64,000 nucleotides of DNA from a virus (Duplodnaviria; Caudoviricetes). The notes below the pieces were generated by a model. The model had not been told where the DNA came from and did not search any database. It saw nothing but the letters and a program-made list of their open reading frames with translations. Positions 1-51,658 of this stretch are shown one piece after another; position 1 is the stretch's first letter; every line of letters starts with the position of its first letter. A program made the translations under genes and the position numbers. The stretch lies in the IMG/VR virus record IMGVR_UViG_3300031555_004294, positions 1 to 64,000 of that record; one strand, given 5' to 3'.

Positions 1-3000
1 ATTAACATCAATTGTGGCAATTTTTGTTCCAGATGTTAAATGTTGAGTGACATTTACAGTGTCACCACCGCCACCTACGCCATCTGGAGAAGGTGCATAG
101 ACATCTGTGGCTGCTGCATCACCTATTTTAATTGTAGCAATCTTAGTACCAGATTTTTGAATCTGATTCCAAGATACTTCAAGATCTTCTAACTTCTCTT
201 GTAGATCTTGTCCGTCTAAAGCAATAGTATTTGCAGTTACAGTAGTAGTATCTAACCCACTAGAGTCAATGGTAGTTCCAATATTTCCACTACCATCTAC
301 AATAGTAAATGAAGTAGAACCAGATACAATTTCTTCAGTAATTTCATCTCTGAAAGTACTAAGATCAACTGTTTTTGTATTGACTGCTGTTACATGACCA
401 TTACCATCTCTAGTAACACTATCGACAGCGGTAAATCTGTCATTGTTACTACTAGATGGTGTCTCGATGTCATCATTATCATCTGCACCCATTGTTATAT
501 CTGGATGCTTAGTTAAGAATGTAGCTCCTTTAGTTGCTGTAATGGTATTACCACTTTGTGAGATAGCAGTAATAGCATTGCCACTACCAGTAATTTTTAC
601 TTCTTTTGCATAGTTGCTATGATTATGAGAATCATCATTTACAGCAATCACACCATTTGTAATGGTTACATCACCACCAGTTTTAACAAGACCTAAATCA
701 GTACCAGCTGGACCAATTGTAAGGCCGTCAATCACAACAGTATCTGCAGTTACAGTAGTAGTTTCAAGACCTTCAGCATCGATTGTAGTTCCAATATTTC
801 CACTACCATCTACAATAGTAAATGAAGTAGAACCAGATACGATTTCCTCAGTAATCTCATCTCTGAAAGTACTAAGACTAACTGTCTTTGTATTAACTTT
901 AGTTACATGTCCATAATTGTCTCTAGTAAGACTATCAAAGGCAGTAAACGTGTCATTATTGCTATTAGATGGTGATACAGTATTACCAGTATCTATATTA
1001 CCTGTTGTAGTGTTTACATCTGGGTGTTCAGTTAGATATTGGCTGTGAGTATGACTATCATTAGCAACAGTAACGTTAATTGATACATTACCAGAACCAT
1101 CAAAAGTGGTAGAACCACTAGCATCTCCAGTTAAAGAAATTGTTCTTGCAGTAGCAAGTTTTGCTGCTTTATCAACAATACCATCATGATTTGTATCATA
1201 AGTAGATTTTAACATCATACCAGTATCTGAATTGCCAATATCAACGCCATTAAGTGAAATAGTATCTGCAGTTACAGTAGTAGTATCCAAACCATTTGCA
1301 TCGATTGTAGTTCCAATATTTCCACTACCATCTACAATCGTAAATGAAGTAGATTCAGATACAATTTCCTCAGTGATTTCATCTCTGAAAGTACTAAGAT
1401 TAACTGTCTTTGTATTAACTTTAGTTACATGACCATTACTGTCTCTAGTAACACTGTCGATAGCAGTAAACGTGTCATTGTTGCTATTAGATGGCGATAC
1501 ATTGCTTGTAGTATCTTGTAAAATAGTTGGATTGGAACCAGCAGTAACGTGCCCATAAGCATTTACAGTTACATTTGTGTAGGTTCCAGCAGTAACACCA
1601 GATTTTGCATGAGACGCTGTATAAGATACACTATTTTCTCCACCTGTACCACTAAGAACAACTACGTCATCATCAGAAGCAGTTGCAGTTATCTTACGAG
1701 TTTTAATCTCAGTATCTAACTCATCAATCATGTCAATGATACTTTCACCATTAAGCTGTATATCGGTAGTAGCATTAACAACAGTGGTATTTAACCCATT
1801 TTCATCAACTCGTGCTACAATATTGCCAGATCCATCAGCTACAATCCATTCATCAGATTCAGATACAATTTCTTCACGTAGATTATCTAAATCAGTGTTA
1901 TGTTTAGTCGTCAGACTAGTAATTGCTTCATCTACATAAGAAGTAGTAGCATGATTAGTAGGTAGATTTGTTAGATCATTGTAGCTACCAGAGAAGTCAG
2001 ATTTAGCATTCCATGCAGTTCTTTCTGCAGCAGTAATATGCAATTTGTCAGTTCTATTATCAGACTCTTCAGTATGTGTATCAATTTCAGTTCTTAACTC
2101 ATCGATTGTATCAGCAACATTTGTATCATCGATAAATACTTTCTTTGCAACTACAGTAGTAGTTTCTAAACCTACTTCAGGATTTCCATTACTACCATTT
2201 ACACTAGTTTCACCTACTTTTGCAATTATATTGCCAGATCCATCAGCTACAATCCATTCATCAGATTCAGATACAATTTCTTCACGCAGATTATCTAAAT
2301 CAGTATTGTGTTGAGTGGTTAAGTCAGTAATTACTTCATCTATTTTCTCATTGATTAAAGCATACAGACCAGTAGCATCTTTAGTAGAAGTCTTAGGATC
2401 ACCTATTTCAGTAGATAAATCACTGATCATGGTAACTACATTAGTACCTTCAGCAACATCACCAATCTTATTGTCTAGATTGTCAGTAAGATCGCTAACC
2501 ATACTAACTACATCGTCATAATCATCTGGAACGGTACCGATTTTAGTATTTATAGCATCAATTTCTGTTTGAACATCTTTACTACCAATAAACACTTTTT
2601 GTGCAACAACGTTAGTAGTTTCTAAACCTACTTCAGGGTTATTGTTTTCATCTACTACACTTGTTTCGCCTACTTTAAGAACGACATTACCATTATTATC
2701 TGTAACTAGTAGTTCAGTATCACTATCAGTAGCTGAGATATTACCTATAGTAGTTTTCTCATCATTTGTTAAATGGATATTACCATTCTCAGTATGAGTA
2801 CTTAAGTTAGTAGCTACCTCATTAAGTTCGTCTTTTGATGCTTTACTATCAAGACCAGTAGTTGCATGGTTAACTTTATTCTCCAGTGTAGTAATACGTT
2901 GACCTTCAGCAGTAATGTCACCAAATTCAACGAATTTACCATTGACAAATACCCATTCTTCTTCACCAACAGCAATTACATCACCATTATCATAAACAGA

Positions 3001-3870
3001 TAGGTCATCACCATTTTCAGCAGTGGGTACCTTATCCATAACATCAATAAAGTGCATGGCACCATTTACACCAGTGATTAACTGTTGTAGTTCATCTATA
3101 TTTTCAACAATATCTTCTCCACCAACGAATAACTTCTTTGCAACAACAGTAGTAATTTCTAAACCTACTTCAGGATTTCCACTACTATTGTTTACACTTG
3201 TTTCGCCTACTTTCATGACGATATTACCATTGTTATCAGTAACTAGTAGTTCAGTATCACTATCACTAGCTGAGATATTACTAAGGGTAGTCTTTTCATC
3301 ATCTGTAACATGAAGAGTATCTGTATTTTGTACGTGTTCAACAAAAGCAACATCTAAAACATCAATAGTAGTATCTAGTTCATCAATTCTAGTAACAATA
3401 CTTTCACCGTGAACCTTTACATCAGTAGTGTTGACACCATTCTCATCAACTCTGAAAACAATGTTACCAGCTTCATCAGTAATTTCTAGTTTTTTATCAT
3501 CACCATCAGATCTAATAGTACCTATGGTAGTTTTTTCATCATTTGTAAGGTGAATATCTGTATTTTCAGTATGAGTAGATAAGTTAGTTGCTACAGTATC
3601 TACTTGAGTAATAGTAGCGTGGTCTGTAGGAAGATTAGTTAAATCATTGTAGTTACCAGAAAAATCTGATTTAGCGTTCCACTTATTTTTATCAGCTTCT
3701 GTAACGTGAATATCTGTATCATCTATATGCTCATCGACAGTAGTATTTAAAACATCTAAATCGTCATTACTAGCTGGTGTATAACCTAGTGCTGTAGTGA
3801 CTTTTTCTTTTGTTATTGATTGTCCTGAAAGTTTCTTTAATTTACCTTCAAGTTGAATATTTACACTCAT
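1..3870 (-). CDS. Large repeat-rich tail-fibre-like protein, runs off the window start (absent from ORF track)
   Basis: ATG at 3870 with AAAGGAGG upstream; frame begins MSVNIQLEGKLKKLSGQSIT; ~515-nt internal repeats near 270, 785 and 1305; shares AMHF..GDVI.VG.EE.VF.NG.F.EFGD and ATGLYALI modules with 7021..9939. Continuity of the frame was not checked codon by codon. Confidence 0.75.
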   Translation of the reverse strand, partial: MSVNIQLEGKLKKLSGQSITKEKVTTALGYTPASNDDLDVLNTTVDEHIDDTDIHVTEADKNKWNAKSDFSGNYNDLTNLPTDHATITQVDTVATNLSTHTENTDIHLTNDEKTTIGTIRSDGDDKKLEITDEAGNIVFRVDENGVNTTDVKVHGESIVTRIDELDTTIDVLDVAFVEHVQNTDTLHVTDDEKTTLSNISASDSDTELLVTDNNGNIVMKVGETSVNNSSGNPEVGLEITTVVAKKLFVGGEDIVENIDELQQLITGVNGAMHFIDVMDKVPTAENGDDLSVYDNGDVIAVGEEEWVFVNGKFVEFGDITAEGQRITTLENKVNHATTGLDSKASKDELNEVATNLSTHTENGNIHLTNDEKTTIGNISATDSDTELLVTDNNGNVVLKVGETSVVDENNNPEVGLETTNVVAQKVFIGSKDVQTEIDAINTKIGTVPDDYDDVVSMVSDLTDNLDNKIGDVAEGTNVVTMISDLSTEIGDPKTSTKDATGLYALINEKIDEVITDLTTQHNTDLDNLREEIVSESDEWIVADGSGNIIAKVGETSVNGSNGNPEVGLETTTVVAKKVFIDDTNVADTIDELRTEIDTHTEESDNRTDKLHITAAERTAWNAKSDFSGSYNDLTNLPTNHATTSYVDEAITSLTTKHNTDLDNLREEIVSESDEWIVADGSGNIVARVDENGLNTTVVNATTDIQLNGESIIDMIDELDTEIKTRKITATASDDDVVVLSGTGGENSVSYTASHAKSGVTAGTYTNVTVNAYGHVTAGSNPTILQDTTSNVSPSNSNNDTFTAIDSVTRDSNGHVTKVNTKTVNLSTFRDEITEEIVSESTSFTIVDGSGNIGTTIDANGLDTTTVTADTISLNGVDIGNSDTGMMLKSTYDTNHDGIVDKAAKLATARTISLTGDASGSTTFDGSGNVSINVTVANDSHTHSQYLTEHPDVNTTTGNIDTGNTVSPSNSNNDTFTAFDSLTRDNYGHVTKVNTKTVSLSTFRDEITEEIVSGSTSFTIVDGSGNIGTTIDAEGLETTTVTADTVVIDGLTIGPAGTDLGLVKTGGDVTITNGVIAVNDDSHNHSNYAKEVKITGSGNAITAISQSGNTITATKGATFLTKHPDITMGADDNDDIETPSSSNNDRFTAVDSVTRDGNGHVTAVNTKTVDLSTFRDEITEEIVSGSTSFTIVDGSGNIGTTIDSSGLDTTTVTANTIALDGQDLQEKLEDLEVSWNQIQKSGTKIATIKIGDAAATDVYAPSPDGVGGGGDTVNVTQHLTSGTKIATIDVN

Positions 3871-26151: not shown

Positions 26152-26745
26152 ATGGAAAGAGATTTTAAAATTTTAAGTGAAGAATACTTATTATCCCTTT
26201 TAAATGAAGCACCTGGTAACGTACAACAAACTAACCAAACTCAAACAACATTCTCAAATGAACCTAATACTACATACGAACCACAAGAACAAGATGCAAG
26301 TATGGGGATTGAGAATGATATGGGTGAGGGAAGTTTTGACCCAGGTATGGAAGAAATGGATATGGGCAGTGGAAATAATATGTCTGGTGATATGACAATG
26401 GGTGGAGATCCATCTATGGGTCTTGGTAGTCCTTCAGTAAATGTCAAGGATATCTTTAAGAAAAGAAAGCTATTTAATGACTACAAAGCATTACTAGAAG
26501 TAATTGAAGAATTATTAGGAACAACAAATAAAATATTATCCAGAGATCTTTCAGATGATGCCCAAAAAATATACATGTTTGTAAACCAAAAAATGGAAGA
26601 AAACAAACAGAAGGTATTAATTATTTTAACTGAGCAGTACCTAATTTTGCCTTATAAGCAGCTTTTAACGCTTTATATGTACATCAAAATAGCCACAAAG
26701 TCATATGCGGATATAGTAAAACAAATTAGTGTCATGTATCAATAA
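26152..26745 (+). CDS. Hypothetical protein, possible prohead core/scaffold
   Basis: LLNE-A site, acidic Met/Gly-rich linker, helical C-terminus; adjacent to MCP. Confidence 0.55.
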   Translation: MERDFKILSEEYLLSLLNEAPGNVQQTNQTQTTFSNEPNTTYEPQEQDASMGIENDMGEGSFDPGMEEMDMGSGNNMSGDMTMGGDPSMGLGSPSVNVKDIFKKRKLFNDYKALLEVIEELLGTTNKILSRDLSDDAQKIYMFVNQKMEENKQKVLIILTEQYLILPYKQLLTLYMYIKIATKSYADIVKQISVMYQ

Positions 26746-26912
26746 CTAAAACGAAATTTTTTCTAAACAAAAAAGTAAACAAATAAATAGTCTACTAAAT
26801 TATGTATTTGCAGTGGTAATAGTAAAACTAACTATGACACTACAAATTATAGAAAAGATTTTAATATACTACATCATATTAAATCAAACAAAAATTAAAT
26901 TTTTTCTAAATG

Positions 26913-26979
26913 AAAGGAGGAAATCATACACTGGATTTGATCTCTTTCGATCAAATTACGTATGATATTTAAACTTATG
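26913..26979 (+). promoter_or_regulatory. Hairpin-bridged ribosome-binding site of the major capsid gene
   Basis: AAAGGAGG (26913-20), stem-loop 26921-26969, ATG 26977 seven nt after the stem. Confidence 0.65.
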
Positions 26980-28643
26980 TCTATTGAATATCGTCAAACA
27001 GCTCGTTCTAGAATGAACGATGGTTTCTCTGATGTATTAAGAGAAGCAGCTGAGTTCTTTGCTAACAAAGGCATTCAGATGACTTCCCATCAGGGTATGG
27101 AAGAAATTCTATCTGAGCAGACTCTCTTCAATGAGTATAAAGATCACTTACTTGAAGGTATGGAGCCTGACCAGGTTGAAAACTTCAATCAACTTATGGA
27201 CAACGCTCGTACCAGCATGCTTCAGGAAGCATCTGTATCTGGCGTTCAGCAAATCGCTGGCTTATCTATGCCTACCATTCGTAAGATGTGGGCAAAGGTA
27301 GCTCTAAAGCATGCTATTCCTACTCAGGTTGTTGCAACTCCTCGTTTTGCTATTTCTTACACCAAGGCATACTTAATGGATGCTGAAGGCAACAAGAAAG
27401 AGCTTCCCGATGCTATCAATAATCTAAACAACAGAGAAGCTCAGCTTCCTAGATTCGTTAACCCTGCTGATGGTCTTGTACTTCCTATGATTGACTTCGA
27501 CCTCTATGCTAATGGTTTCCCACAGGTTCCTGCTCTAAAAGGCACTGACACCATTGACAAGGTCTTCTATGTTGAGACTGTTAAGGTTAACAAGGCTGCA
27601 GTTCAGGCTGCTGCTCAAGCTGCTGAACAGGCTGCTGCTGGTAGCATGAATGGCTATGCAGGTGGTGACATTGATGAGATGACCATTCGTGTTCACATCA
27701 AGACCGACCTGAATGCTCTTATTTCTGCTCGTGTTGCTATTCCCGTTCAGTTAACTGATCCTACTACTGGTGTAGTTACTAAGTACGGTGAAGTTTACGA
27801 GACTCTACTTGGTCGTGTTGACTATGCAGATGGTAAGTTCACTTTAATGTCTTCTGGCAACATGATTACTCATGCATTTATTGATGCTCGTCTCTCTCAA
27901 GAAGCAAATGACTACGGTCAGTCTGTAAGCTTCGACGTTCTTACTAAGGACGTTACCATCGGTGTTGGCAGCCACCTGAATGCTCCTCTGCCTATTGAGT
28001 GGCTTCAGGATACTATGGCTATCTACAATATCGATGGCGCAGCTGAAGTTGTTGACTTAATGTCTCAGACCGTTGCTCAGCAGCTTGAAATTGAGATTTA
28101 CAACTTCCTTAACAACTCTATCGAAGTAAATAACATTCAGTACTTAGGTGAGTTCAATATGATTCCTTCCGCTGGTTACAATGGTACTCCTAAGAGCTGG
28201 CGTGAAGAGCTGAAGACTGTCATTGACTACTATGCAATCAAGATGAAGTCTGATGCTAAGTTCCACGGTGGTAAGTTCATGATCATTGGTAACCCCATTG
28301 ACATGCAGATCATTCCTAACGTTGACTGGGTATTCAACCACACTTCTGACCAGATGTCTGGTGTTGATGTATCCTTCAACCTTGGTGCTTTCTCTGGTGC
28401 TAACAAGTATGAGATGGTTTCTAGTGACCTAGTTCCTGCAGGTGCGTTCATTATGTTCTTCGTACCTGGAATTGATCGTCTCATGACCTACAAGTACTAT
28501 CCTTACACCTTTAACGTAGAAAGAGGTTACCGTGATCCTAATATGCCTAACGTTCCTAGTCTTATGATGACTAAGCGTCATGCACTTGAGGAGTTCACTC
28601 CCCTTATCTGCCGTATTACTATCAAGAATAATATCGGTGCCGT
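26977..28643 (+). CDS. Major capsid protein (T4 gp23-like), exon 1
   Basis: MLQE-AS putative cleavage site; E..QD..A...ID...E...LMS pattern; YKYYPY....P...P..MMTKRHA C-terminal motif; strongly biased codon usage. Confidence 0.85.
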
Positions 28644-28868
28644 TAACAAATATAGCGGTTTTATGCAGAAATGCATATCAAATCTAAAAGAATTGCTGGA
28701 AAAGCTATTGCCAATCAGCATCCTTAGAAATAAGGTTCAACGATTAAGTGTCGCATAAGTTTGCGATCTGTATTTAGAATCCAAAAGCGAGAAATGGATT
28801 ATGATATAATCTCTACTTCTATGAAAATAGAAGACTGACATCTAACAAATGTCAAACTAAGATATTAG
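28644..28868 (+). ncRNA. ORF-less group I intron at the 3' end of the capsid gene (3' splice site at G28861 or G28868)
   Basis: P AAUUGCUGGAA (28691), Q AAUCAGCA (28713), R GUUCAACGAUUA (28735), S AUGAUAUAAUC (28801) with a compensatory P7 pair; P1 GCCGU/GCGGU with U.G. Confidence 0.85.
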
Positions 28869-48479: not shown

Positions 48480-48660
48480 TAACATTTAAACTTCGATTAT
48501 TCTTTTTTTAGAATAATCGAAGTTTTTATCATTTTTTCAGAACAAGATATTAGATTTATTCTCCTAGTTTTATGAATTCTATGAAAAGTTCTCATTCGTT
48601 TCAACAAATATATAAAACTTTATAAACTGCTATAACTTTATAAAATTTATGACAAAAAAA

Positions 48661-48733
48661 GAAAGGAGGTTTCTGCTGTATAATATAAAATAAACAACTA
48701 CATTATATTTTTAACAGCAGGAAATTTTATATG
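48661..48733 (+). promoter_or_regulatory. Hairpin-bridged ribosome-binding site of the tail sheath gene
   Basis: GAAAGGAGG, stem 48670-79/48714-23, ATG seven nt after the stem; AACA-N6-TA at 48541 and 48603. Confidence 0.65.
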
Positions 48734-51658
48734 GCAATTAGTTATGTACATCCTTCTGTAAGCAGTACTATTACTGACAATTCTACTACGTATATTACTG
48801 CTTCAGGAACTACTAAATTATTCGCTGTTTTTACTTCTGAAAAGGGTATTGACAATGAAATCCAAACTATAACTTCTGCTTCTGAGTTTATTTTTAACTA
48901 TGGCGAACCTAACATGAAGCTATATGGTCAGGCTGGTTACAATATTGTTAACTGGTTGAATGCTGGCGGTGCTGTATATTGCTTACGTGTTCTTCCTGAA
49001 GATGCTGGCTATGCAAATGCTATTGTTAACATTCAGACTAAGAAAACCCAGAAAGAAGTATTAGATGTTAATGGTGAGCTTGTAGTTGTAGATAATGTCG
49101 AGTTACGTCCTTGCATTACTTATACTAACCTTAACAATACGTCTAAAACGGAAATTGAGTCTGAATTAAGACGTGTCACTGCTGAAACTATTGATGGTTA
49201 TACAAACAATATGCTGTTTGCAGTAATTCCAAATGGTAGAGGTAAGGGATATAATAACTTAGGTTTCAGATTTAGCTTAACTGAAGCTTATGATTCTACT
49301 TACGAATTCCGTCTTTATAATTTTGAAGTAACACAAACTTCTAGTACTGGTAGTGTATCTGTTATTCAAGGTCCTTTCCTTGTTTCTTTAGATCCTGATG
49401 CTATGTCTAACAGTGGTAGTTCTTTCTTTATCACTGACGTAATCGACAACTACTGTGATTACTTCACAGTTATCTTCAATGAAGACAACTATGAGAAATT
49501 AGCTAAGCTTATCAATCCTGAAGTTCATCCTAATAAGATTGACTTTTTCAGTGGTTTAAGTCGTCAGATTAATGGTGAGTACGAAACTTATTATGATGAG
49601 CGTACCAACAAGGAAGAAGATATTCATATGTCTGTTATCAGATATACTGATGATGGCAAAGCTACCAATGAGCGTAATATCATCGATGCTTCTGATGCTA
49701 TTGAGAATTCTATTGCATTGATCGACAATGCTTATCGTAATGAACAGTATGAACGTTATAATGAATCTTTTGAGCGTTCTAAAGAAGTTTTAAGTATTAT
49801 CAAGAAATTTGAAGATGCATCTACTCGTAAAGTTGCATATAATAACATTGAACTAGATACAATTAAAGACGAAAATGGTAAAGCATATACGCTTGATGCT
49901 GGTGTTGCAGCTTTTGAAGCTGATAATTCTGTAGCAGAAGCATATGATGTCTTTGAAGTTGCTAAGGGCGAATTAACTAATGATGTTTCTGAAGCTACTT
50001 ACAATATTGCTAATGCAGAAGTTTATGCTCTATCCGTTTGCATTAATGCTTTAGTCGATCAGCTTTATGAATTATTTGACTATGCAAGAATTAGTCAAGG
50101 TGTAGATGATTCTCATGCATCTACTGTTGCTACTCTTTTAACAGATCTTCAAACTGTTGAAGGTAAACTTAAGTCCATGACTGTTGCTGAACTTAATTGC
50201 AATAAGCATAAGAATACTGTTTCTGAGCTTTCTGAAACCTTTAACAATCTGAATGTTAATTCAATTAACTCTGAAAAAGAAGAATTTATTTATGAGGTCA
50301 TTGGAAAAGTTGAAAGTATCTTAGCAACAATCAAGAATATTTCTGATGCGGTTGAGGGTTCTTCTAATACCTTTGCAGATAGCCATTTAGAAGAAGTAGA
50401 AACTGCTCTAAATGTAATTAAGACTGATTATGATACTCTCACTGATGATTATACAACTGCTGTTGATTATGAGATTTCATTAGAATCTGCATGGAGAACC
50501 ATTAGAAATCTGTTAAAGGTTGAGTCTCTCTATTTTACAATTAATCTTGCACTTTTAGAGAATAAATCTGTTGCTTACAATGAGCTTAAAGAGCCATTAA
50601 ATAGCTTAAAGGCAAGAGTTGTTTCCTTCATTAATACTGTCAAGTCTGAAATCGGTGGTTTCGATTATGCGGCTGCTAAAACTTCTATCGTTTCCATCCA
50701 GAAGGATACAACCGATAAGAAGCAGGAAACCTACTACACAGTTTCTCAGAACTTTGATAACTATGTATCTCTACTTTACGGTACCGATGGTTCTATAGAA
50801 GATGTTTCTTATAGAGATCATGCAGTTGAGAAACTAATCATTGAAGGCTATAAGGGTATGATTGATGACTCCTTAACTGATAAGGAACAGTGGCCCATCG
50901 ACATGGTTCTTGACGCTAACTACTCTGCTAATATTAAGAGTGCAATTGCTGTTCTTTGTACTGAACTTCGTACTGACTTTATGGGTATTCTTGATACTGA
51001 GTTACAAGCAACTCCTGGTGATGCTATCAACTATAGAAAGAGTTCCATCAACTTCAACAACTATCGTCTTGCTATCTTTACTCAGGACTTTGTTGTTTCC
51101 GATAGTGAATATACTGGTAATGAGATTAGAATAACTCCTACTTATTTCCTTGCGTCCAAGATTCCTTCTAATGATAACACTAATGGTATCCATTGGAATT
51201 TTGTTGGTCCTCGTCGTGGTACTGTTACTGGCTTTAAGTCTGTTTCCTTCTTACCTAATGTTGAGTGGAGAGAAAGACTATATAACGCACAGATTAACTA
51301 TGTACAACAGGATCAGATTTCTACTAGATTCAACTCTCAGTTAACCTCTCAGCACAGTGTTTCTGCACTGTCTAATATTAGCTGTGTACGTACTCTTCTC
51401 AGAATTCAGCGTGATGTTGAAGATTTAATGAAGAACTACCAGTTTGAATTCAATGATTCTGTAACTATTACCAACGCACAGACCGATCTTAGTGCTTATC
51501 TGAATAAATGGATTGCTAACCGTGCTTGTGATTCTATCTCTGGTACTGTTTATGCATCCGACTATGATAGACAACAGAAGCTTCTTCGTGTTAAGGTTGA
51601 ACTTACCTTCAATTCTATCATCGAACGTATCGCTATTGACCTGGTTGTCAATGCATAA
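48731..51658 (+). CDS. Tail sheath protein with a large helical insertion
   Basis: HP.V...I.D.S, EFIFNYGEP, YCLRV; C-terminal R.D...ILD, GPRRG, LY..QINY, S.LS.I...R.L, FEFND. Confidence 0.9.
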   Translation: MAISYVHPSVSSTITDNSTTYITASGTTKLFAVFTSEKGIDNEIQTITSASEFIFNYGEPNMKLYGQAGYNIVNWLNAGGAVYCLRVLPEDAGYANAIVNIQTKKTQKEVLDVNGELVVVDNVELRPCITYTNLNNTSKTEIESELRRVTAETIDGYTNNMLFAVIPNGRGKGYNNLGFRFSLTEAYDSTYEFRLYNFEVTQTSSTGSVSVIQGPFLVSLDPDAMSNSGSSFFITDVIDNYCDYFTVIFNEDNYEKLAKLINPEVHPNKIDFFSGLSRQINGEYETYYDERTNKEEDIHMSVIRYTDDGKATNERNIIDASDAIENSIALIDNAYRNEQYERYNESFERSKEVLSIIKKFEDASTRKVAYNNIELDTIKDENGKAYTLDAGVAAFEADNSVAEAYDVFEVAKGELTNDVSEATYNIANAEVYALSVCINALVDQLYELFDYARISQGVDDSHASTVATLLTDLQTVEGKLKSMTVAELNCNKHKNTVSELSETFNNLNVNSINSEKEEFIYEVIGKVESILATIKNISDAVEGSSNTFADSHLEEVETALNVIKTDYDTLTDDYTTAVDYEISLESAWRTIRNLLKVESLYFTINLALLENKSVAYNELKEPLNSLKARVVSFINTVKSEIGGFDYAAAKTSIVSIQKDTTDKKQETYYTVSQNFDNYVSLLYGTDGSIEDVSYRDHAVEKLIIEGYKGMIDDSLTDKEQWPIDMVLDANYSANIKSAIAVLCTELRTDFMGILDTELQATPGDAINYRKSSINFNNYRLAIFTQDFVVSDSEYTGNEIRITPTYFLASKIPSNDNTNGIHWNFVGPRRGTVTGFKSVSFLPNVEWRERLYNAQINYVQQDQISTRFNSQLTSQHSVSALSNISCVRTLLRIQRDVEDLMKNYQFEFNDSVTITNAQTDLSAYLNKWIANRACDSISGTVYASDYDRQQKLLRVKVELTFNSIIERIAIDLVVNA

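Follow-up and report, generated by a model that had tools for sequence, protein, structure and literature searches.

The major capsid and tail sheath genes of an uncultured giant phage carry leaders that are likely split (noncontiguous) ribosome-binding sites of the type described for T4 genes 25 and 38. Along the linear sequence, the Shine-Dalgarno (SD) sequence stands 56 nt from the AUG in the capsid leader and 61 nt in the sheath leader, beyond the functional range (up to about 15 nt), and in both leaders a predicted RNA hairpin occupies the interval. The structure is kept in relatives despite sequence change, in seven capsid leaders with unrelated stems and in four sheath leaders in which the stem is kept. 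In the mechanism that we propose, a 9-11-nt SD in the late mRNA would pair strongly with the 16S rRNA 3' end, a stable hairpin (44 nt in the capsid leader, 54 nt in the sheath leader) would begin 0-2 nt past the SD and end 7-10 nt before the AUG, and its folding would bring the SD and start codon to a normal functional distance. The 30S subunit would then hold the SD and AUG together, with the hairpin protruding from the platform side. We infer that the hairpin forms in vivo and that initiation depends on its fold; the payoff would be a high and robust output of the two most abundant virion proteins, perhaps with extra protection of the mRNA.

The stretch of DNA analysed here (the window, 64,000 nt) is the minus strand of positions 78162-142161 of a 156.8-kb IMG/VR contig, which has a G+C content of 32% and an estimated completeness of 61%. 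The capsid gene (26977..28758, + strand) matches the phrog_20655 major head protein profile (E 8e-148) and, weakly, Pfam Gp23, and its product is 41% identical to g117, the major head precursor of Bacillus phage AR9/PBS1, in an alignment that starts from residue 1. Because of these three capsid matches, we assign the source to the AR9-like jumbo phages, kin to Bacillus phage AR9. A megablast search of the region against cultured phages returned no matches. The tail sheath gene (48731..51658, + strand; 975 aa) matches the phrog_19666 tail sheath profile (E 6e-239) and the sheath genes of AR9-like and Staphylococcus jumbo phages.

At its 3' end, the capsid gene enters a group I intron-like element, where the Rfam Intron_gpI model matches window positions 28634-28833 with 44.7 bits (E 1.5e-9), a score that does not reach the gathering score of 50. 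Because of this match, the 593-aa capsid frame probably reads into the intron; capsid homologues align to about residue 562 only. In the relative L003/L006 the capsid gene is likewise interrupted (ORF 1501-3012, then 3242-3424), with 19 stops in the matched span.

The capsid leader and its folds

The extended SD of the capsid gene, GAAAGGAGG, lies at 26912..26920 (+ strand). An earlier sequence-only reading had placed AAAGGAGG, at 26913-26920, 56 nt from the AUG, and this is indeed the length of the spacer (26921-26976) that separates the last G of the SD from ATG 26977. The same reading had described a nested stem-loop in the spacer, and both of its stems were recovered when the spacer was folded alone. 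The predicted 44-nt hairpin (26923..26966, + strand) has an outer stem at 26923-26929/26960-26966 (AUCAUAC/GUAUGAU) and an inner stem at 26934-26942/26949-26957 that closes the loop 26943-26948. This minimum free energy (MFE) fold has -15.8 kcal/mol and accounts for 78% of the ensemble, with a z-score of -5.55; equally stable folds were found in 0 of 200 dinucleotide shuffles, and the bridging hairpin geometry in 0 of 500. An unpaired A/U-rich tail of 10 nt (26967..26976, + strand; AUUUAAACUU) connects the hairpin to the AUG. The reading had left 7 nt there, which holds if an AAA/UUU extension with a bulged A forms, while the MFE fold leaves 10 nt. Gap and tail together measure 12 nt (2 + 10), within the usual SD-AUG spacing of this genome. 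No SD-like sequence was found in the last 20 nt before ATG 26977, where the best anti-SD duplex has +0.2 kcal/mol, in agreement with the earlier remark that no other SD lies nearby.

The apex of the hairpin (26943-26948) is pyrimidine-rich and anti-SD-like (UCUCUUUC in the window). A similar apex is found in L003 (UUUCUCUUUUUU, about 1440-1455) and in L005 (CUUCUUU), and is absent in L004 and L025.

The mechanically derived ORF list places the capsid start at ATG 26962, which is in frame and which, as had been noticed, is buried by the stem-loop, in its 3' arm. The counterpart ATG in L003, the closest relative, is out of frame and the homologues align from MSIEY. Since the L003 ATG is out of frame and both proteins open with MSIEY, we take the start to be 26977 rather than 26962. 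An upstream ORF that could couple translation to the capsid gene was also considered: a 20-codon frame from ATG 26910 ends 4 nt before ATG 26977, but it has no SD of its own, and neither its start codon nor its frame is kept in L004, L005, L025 and L026. Bypassing of the T4 gene 60 type was rejected as well, as the SD lacks a start codon within working range and no pair of take-off and landing sites is conserved. Terminator or attenuator features were sought after the hairpins of both genes; no U-run follows them, their stems are A/U-rich, and the tails of the relatives read GACAGUAAA, GUCAGCCGCC and others. An intrinsic terminator is excluded because of this lack of a U-run. A covariance-model search of 26700-26980 against Rfam 15, with E values up to 1, gave no family match. 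A mobile or repeated element was rejected too, since a blastn search of the capsid and sheath hairpins against the 156.8-kb contig finds only themselves.

When flanking sequence is included (26905-26995 or 26897-27010), the MFE structure of the naked RNA is a competing fold rather than the bridge hairpin. In the 26897-27010 segment, the SD is weakly paired at GGAGGAAA with a U-tract, UUUUUUCU (about 26899-26907; -5.0 kcal/mol), and capsid codons 2-6 (26984-26995) pair with the hairpin's 3' arm; this closed fold reaches -21.5 kcal/mol, as compared with -17.1 kcal/mol when the bridge forms and the SD is left free. With a longer 5' flank, or when the SD is kept single-stranded as it would be on a 30S subunit, the bridge returns as the MFE structure. 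The predicted capsid hairpin is context-sensitive in silico. A similar U-tract is also present in L003, and the competing pairings are not seen in all relatives.

The closed fold predicted for the window's capsid leader raises the question of whether the hairpin is mainly a regulatory switch or operator, either by binding a protein or by gating capsid and sheath synthesis by time or temperature through alternative folds. The limitation of the design to two co-regulated structural genes would fit such a role. However, the competing pairings are weak, at -5 kcal/mol versus about -16 kcal/mol for the SD/anti-SD duplex, and absent in some relatives. The sequence-only reading had considered control by protein binding; loops and stems have no sequence in common among the relatives, nor between capsid and sheath, and we see no sign of a conserved protein site. 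It had also considered thermosensing, from which the layout departs: the hairpin includes neither the SD, which lies outside it, nor the AUG, which follows 7-10 nt on its 3' side, unlike in ROSE, fourU or other known RNA thermometers. We therefore regard a mainly regulatory hairpin as improbable.

The tail sheath leader and the search for further sites

The tail sheath gene has the same layout. Its extended SD (GAAAGGAGG, 48661..48669, + strand) is part of an 11-nt match, AGAAAGGAGGU, with a predicted duplex energy of -18.7 kcal/mol. The predicted bridging hairpin follows directly (48670..48723, + strand; 54 nt) and is closed by a 10-bp stem, UUUCUGCUGU/ACAGCAGGAA; an unpaired tail of 7 nt (48724..48730, + strand; AUUUUAU) leads to ATG 48731. 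The linear distance of 61 nt is thereby reduced to a gap plus tail of 7 nt. The spacer has a folding energy of -14.5 kcal/mol and a z-score of -5.36, with no equally stable fold among 200 shuffles.

L062 (68% aa identity) shares this layout, as do L063 = L064 = L065 (62%) and L068; L064 and L065 lie on the contigs of the capsid loci L003 and L006, and L068 on the L004 contig. The four distinct sheath leaders (the window, L062, L063-65 and L068) keep the stem, and in L068 it carries two compensatory double changes, C-G to U-A and G-C to A-U, which were read from individual folds, as a MAFFT alignment of the sheath leaders shifts the 3' arm of L068.

We scanned the contig for all GGAGG sites that are 'orphans' without a nearby start codon, and in a second scan worked backwards from the start codons. 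Only two clean split cases were found, the capsid and the tail sheath genes. A looser scan that allowed weak SD motifs and 6-bp stems gave 58 matches, nearly all of them inside ORFs or with a canonical start beside the SD, and only capsid and sheath survived as candidates. The same two genes are split elsewhere. In a complete 319.6-kb relative, 2 of the 14 GAAAGGAGG sites are split, those of the capsid and the sheath only, and the split genes of the L004 contig are again these two. L084, on the L004 contig, was rejected as a further split site: GAAAGGAGG lies 40 nt before the ORF, but there is no hairpin (z-score -0.4).

A possible third split site lies 582 nt past the end of the window, on the minus strand at G000:C1:77580 (L097:1781-1850, minus strand). 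Here AGGAG is separated by 8 nt from a hairpin of 13 perfect base pairs that has a U8 run and a z-score of -5.3; a 7-nt tail then leads to an ATG. The gene that follows encodes a 537-aa endolysin/transglycosylase-like protein, and the hairpin is terminator-like. It may be a terminator hairpin that doubles as a bridge within a ribosome-binding site, or the arrangement may be a coincidence.

Within the sheath gene, codons 7-9 (window 48749-48757, CAUCCUUCU, His-Pro-Ser) are complementary to the SD and pair with it in the MFE structures of the window and L062 leaders. AR9 and L067 have the same His-Pro-Ser residues in their sheaths, encoded by codons that are non-complementary to the SD. The complementarity could be a matter of chance codon usage.

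Leaders of relatives, spacing and SD strength

Using the capsid protein to scan viral and metagenome contigs, we recovered about 35 distinct loci. Seven distinct capsid leaders share a common design of GAAAGGAGG, a gap of 0-4 nt, a hairpin of 30-77 nt, a tail of 8-13 nt and the AUG, and the GAAAGGAGG sequence is identical in all seven. The lengths of gap, hairpin and tail are 2/44/10 nt in the window, 2/70/11 nt in L003 = L006 (84% aa identity to the window), 2/43/9 nt in L004 (70%), 4/77/10 nt in L005 (68%), 2/38/8 nt in L025 (59%), 0/40/13 nt in L026 (59%) and 0/30/10 nt in L009 (44%). The closing stems of these capsid leaders are unrelated to each other: AUCAUAC/GUAUGAU, GUUGUAUU/AAUACAAC, UUUGCUAUA/UAUAGCAAA, GAUAUUUUAGUU/AACUAAAAUAUC, ACUCUAU/AUGGAGU and GGUCUUCC/GGAAGACC. 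Spacer z-scores of the seven are -5.6, -4.3, -2.3, -4.1, -2.0, -4.6 and -2.7. When capsid and sheath leaders are taken together, 0-2 of 500 shuffles gave a hairpin of bridging geometry that reached at least 80% of the observed energy for 10 of the 11 leaders, and 25 of 500 did so for the G+C-rich L009.

In a maximum-likelihood tree of the capsid proteins of 30 loci, six of the hairpin leaders form one clade with 100/100 support together with L024, which has no hairpin and carries GAAAGGGG 12 nt from its ATG, while L009 is placed outside this clade. The simplest history of the capsid hairpin suggested by this tree would be one gain, one loss and one independent gain (L009). Capsid leaders are canonical in AR9 and in the five other cultured relatives checked (BpSp, SA1, LPJP1, MarsHill and phiR1-37). 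Both the capsid and the sheath leaders are canonical in AR9 and in a 53%-identity relative (capsid locus L007, sheath locus L067).

The inverted repeats might instead act at the level of DNA, where a dimeric DNA-binding protein would use them as its operator downstream of the late promoter, or be neutral palindromic insertions that the ribosome tolerates. The inner repeat of the window, ATTTGATC-N6-GATCAAAT, is a perfect palindrome, and a comparison of the window with L003 shows the SD and outer stem conserved and the entire inner part replaced wholesale. Sense and antisense strands of the hairpins also fold about equally well, and because their energies are similar, strand asymmetry provides no proof of a role at the RNA level. 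Against this stands the position of the repeat, which in 11 leaders sits precisely in the SD-AUG interval and leaves a canonical residual spacing. The stems contain G-U pairs, are nested and imperfect and range from 30 to 77 nt in length, and they offer no common sequence for a DNA-binding protein to recognise. A neutral insert of 40-90 nt between the SD and AUG of the most expressed genes would moreover be strongly counter-selected unless folded away, as the split-site model proposes. Overall, we consider a DNA-level or neutral origin of the repeats very improbable.

In support of split ribosome-binding sites, the folded spacing agrees with that of ordinary genes. In the strong-SD ORFs of the contig, the start codon follows the end of the GGAGG-equivalent after 5-13 nt, with a mode of 8-12 nt, and gap plus tail amount to 10-14 nt in the capsid hairpin leaders and 7-10 nt in the sheath leaders. 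Because gap plus tail matches the canonical spacing, the hairpin behaves as if inserted into a spacer of ordinary length, from which it folds away. In the hairpin-bearing leaders of relatives, the best anti-SD duplex in the last 20 nt before the start codon has at most -5.9 kcal/mol, and its site is inside the stem. Seven capsid and four sheath leaders keep the layout with a canonical folded spacing and no proximal SD, so that the main proposal of the sequence-only reading, structure-dependent initiation through a hairpin-bridged SD, is well supported by comparison; translation would then depend on the stem.

The hairpin leaders also differ from canonical ones in the strength of the SD. Duplex energies were predicted with a Bacillota-type 16S tail taken from general knowledge, which may differ from that of the host. 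They amount to -15.6 kcal/mol for the capsid SD of the window and -15.6 to -17.5 kcal/mol for the distal SDs of the hairpin-bearing capsid leaders, as compared with -6.0 to -12.5 kcal/mol (median -9.1) in 24 canonical capsid leaders. The two ranges do not overlap (Mann-Whitney p 4e-5, for loci that are not phylogenetically independent). The full GAAAGGAGG is present in every hairpin leader; L009, of separate origin, carries the same SD, and L024, a presumed revertant, has the strongest canonical SD. Because the hairpin-bearing loci belong mostly to one clade, the association with SD strength rests on about two independent origins. We infer that a split site would require a long SD duplex to keep the 30S subunit bound, and with a gap of 0-2 nt the duplex may stack on the hairpin stem.

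A long SD far from the start codon is also reminiscent of the STAB-SD of Bacillus thuringiensis cry3A, which is described as a 5' mRNA stabiliser (Agaisse and Lereclus 1996, as covered in PMC4113751). According to this source, the cry3A element is SD-like, lies in the 5' UTR far from the start, binds the 3' end of the 16S rRNA and stabilises the mRNA (PMC4113751). By analogy, a 30S subunit parked on the distal GAAAGGAGG would block 5'-to-3' decay by RNase J1, the capsid AUG would initiate independently of an SD, and the hairpin would be a further barrier to decay. The two cases share a strong SD-like element far upstream in the 5' UTR of a very highly expressed gene and a Gram-positive-type translation system, and the SDs here are unusually long and located on very highly expressed late genes. 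However, the STAB-SD does not direct initiation, and such mRNAs keep a separate working ribosome-binding site at the start codon; here there is none, and the hairpin would bring the distal SD to the AUG. A pure stabiliser would need neither the canonical folded spacing nor a hairpin end at a set distance of 7-13 nt from the AUG, and both are present here. Finally, we interpret the distal SD as a translational SD because L024, which lacks the hairpin, carries the same SD 12 nt from its AUG. A role of the distal SD as a stabiliser in place of initiation is thus quite unlikely, and a stabilising side-effect could be compatible with a split ribosome-binding site.

A broader version of the split-site model combines several of these elements. 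The extra-long SD, with its 9-11-bp duplex stacked on the hairpin, and the large hairpin might form a dedicated module for the highest-copy virion proteins, which would provide initiation, a STAB-SD-like protection of the leader and competing folds (the U-tract on the SD, the 3' arm on the first codons) that close the mRNA until ribosomes engage. If this is true, the leaders would be split ribosome-binding sites that also act as stabiliser and as switch, and the design would have evolved in AR9-like phages at least twice. We offer this reading tentatively and consider it doubtful as a whole.

Known split sites and candidate late promoters

To our knowledge, very few split ribosome-binding sites have been proven (T4 genes 38 and 25), and these have small hairpins. 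The sequence-only reading had named these two genes as precedents, which we could confirm in PMC3014915. As described in PMC3014915 and PMC7297116, the hairpin shortens the distance between SD and AUG from 22 to 5 nt in gene 38 and from 27 to 11 nt in gene 25, and mutations in the stem lower translation, which provides mutational proof. Such split initiation regions have also been termed 'noncontiguous' or 'accommodated' (Gold 1988; Nivinskas et al. 1999; Malys and Nivinskas 2009, as reviewed in PMC3014915 and PMC7297116). PMC3014915 gives the split site of gene 25 as present only in close T-evens.

The leaders studied here resemble those of T4 genes 38 and 25 in that the SD is too far away in linear terms and a hairpin restores the distance (from 56 to about 12 nt and from 61 to 7 nt), in the lack of a proximal SD, in their location on late structural genes, and in being confined to one clade of close relatives and absent further out. 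They differ in several respects. The hairpins are 30-77 nt long and nested or branched, whereas the T4 stem-loops fill gaps of 22 and 27 nt; they are two to four times larger than the proven ones, and the 30S subunit would have to tolerate 44-77 nt at this place. The SD is a Bacillota-type GAAAGGAGG of 9-11 nt rather than the GAGG of T4, the genes encode the major capsid and tail sheath proteins of an AR9-like jumbo phage, the closing stems are entirely different from one lineage to the next, and the function is predicted. In the split ribosome-binding site of Escherichia coli thrS, a long hairpin is reported to fit, still folded, into the region of the 30S subunit that binds the mRNA (Sacerdot et al., cited in PMC3936740 and PMC7297116). 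The thrS hairpin, as described there, serves as an operator for ThrRS and sits upstream of an SD with normal spacing, whereas here it lies between SD and AUG, with no protein ligand indicated.

The kind of site that we propose is known, if rare; here it comes with unusually large hairpins and a Gram-positive-type SD. The 11 leaders form a natural series across the capsid and sheath genes: the hairpins span 30-77 nt, their stems are unrelated, the residual spacing is fixed and an extra-long SD is obligatory. This series could serve as a test set for the size of folded insert that the 30S subunit tolerates between SD and start codon in a Gram-positive-type system, and for whether strong SD anchoring is the price of a split site. 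The leaders also matter for annotation, as gene callers that require an SD within about 15 nt will mis-score or mis-start the key structural genes of such phages.

Upstream of these leaders we identified candidate late promoters. The late promoter consensus of AR9 is AACA-(6N)-TA/G, with the last base being the transcript start (PMC5312081). A match to it, AACA-N6-TA, precedes the capsid leader at 26778..26789 (+ strand) and is conserved in L003; its last A would be the transcript start. A similar AACA-N6-TA motif precedes the sheath leader at 48603..48614 (+ strand; AACAAATATATA), also matches the AR9 consensus and is conserved in L062 and L063, and is a putative promoter. A second promoter candidate for the capsid gene is an A/T-rich block, ATATTAAATCAAACAAAA (26876..26893, + strand), about 20-35 nt before the SD and identical in L003; here AACA (26887-26890) is followed by N5-TA, not N6-TA. 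Candidate transcript starts for the capsid gene are thus 26789 and about 26897. Many AR9-like relatives have a block of the TATATTAAAT(C/T)AAA type 20-35 nt before the capsid SD (window 26876-26893, L003, L004, L012, L024, L025 and L034), and this block may be a late promoter element of the group, distinct from the published AACA-N6-TA/G of AR9.
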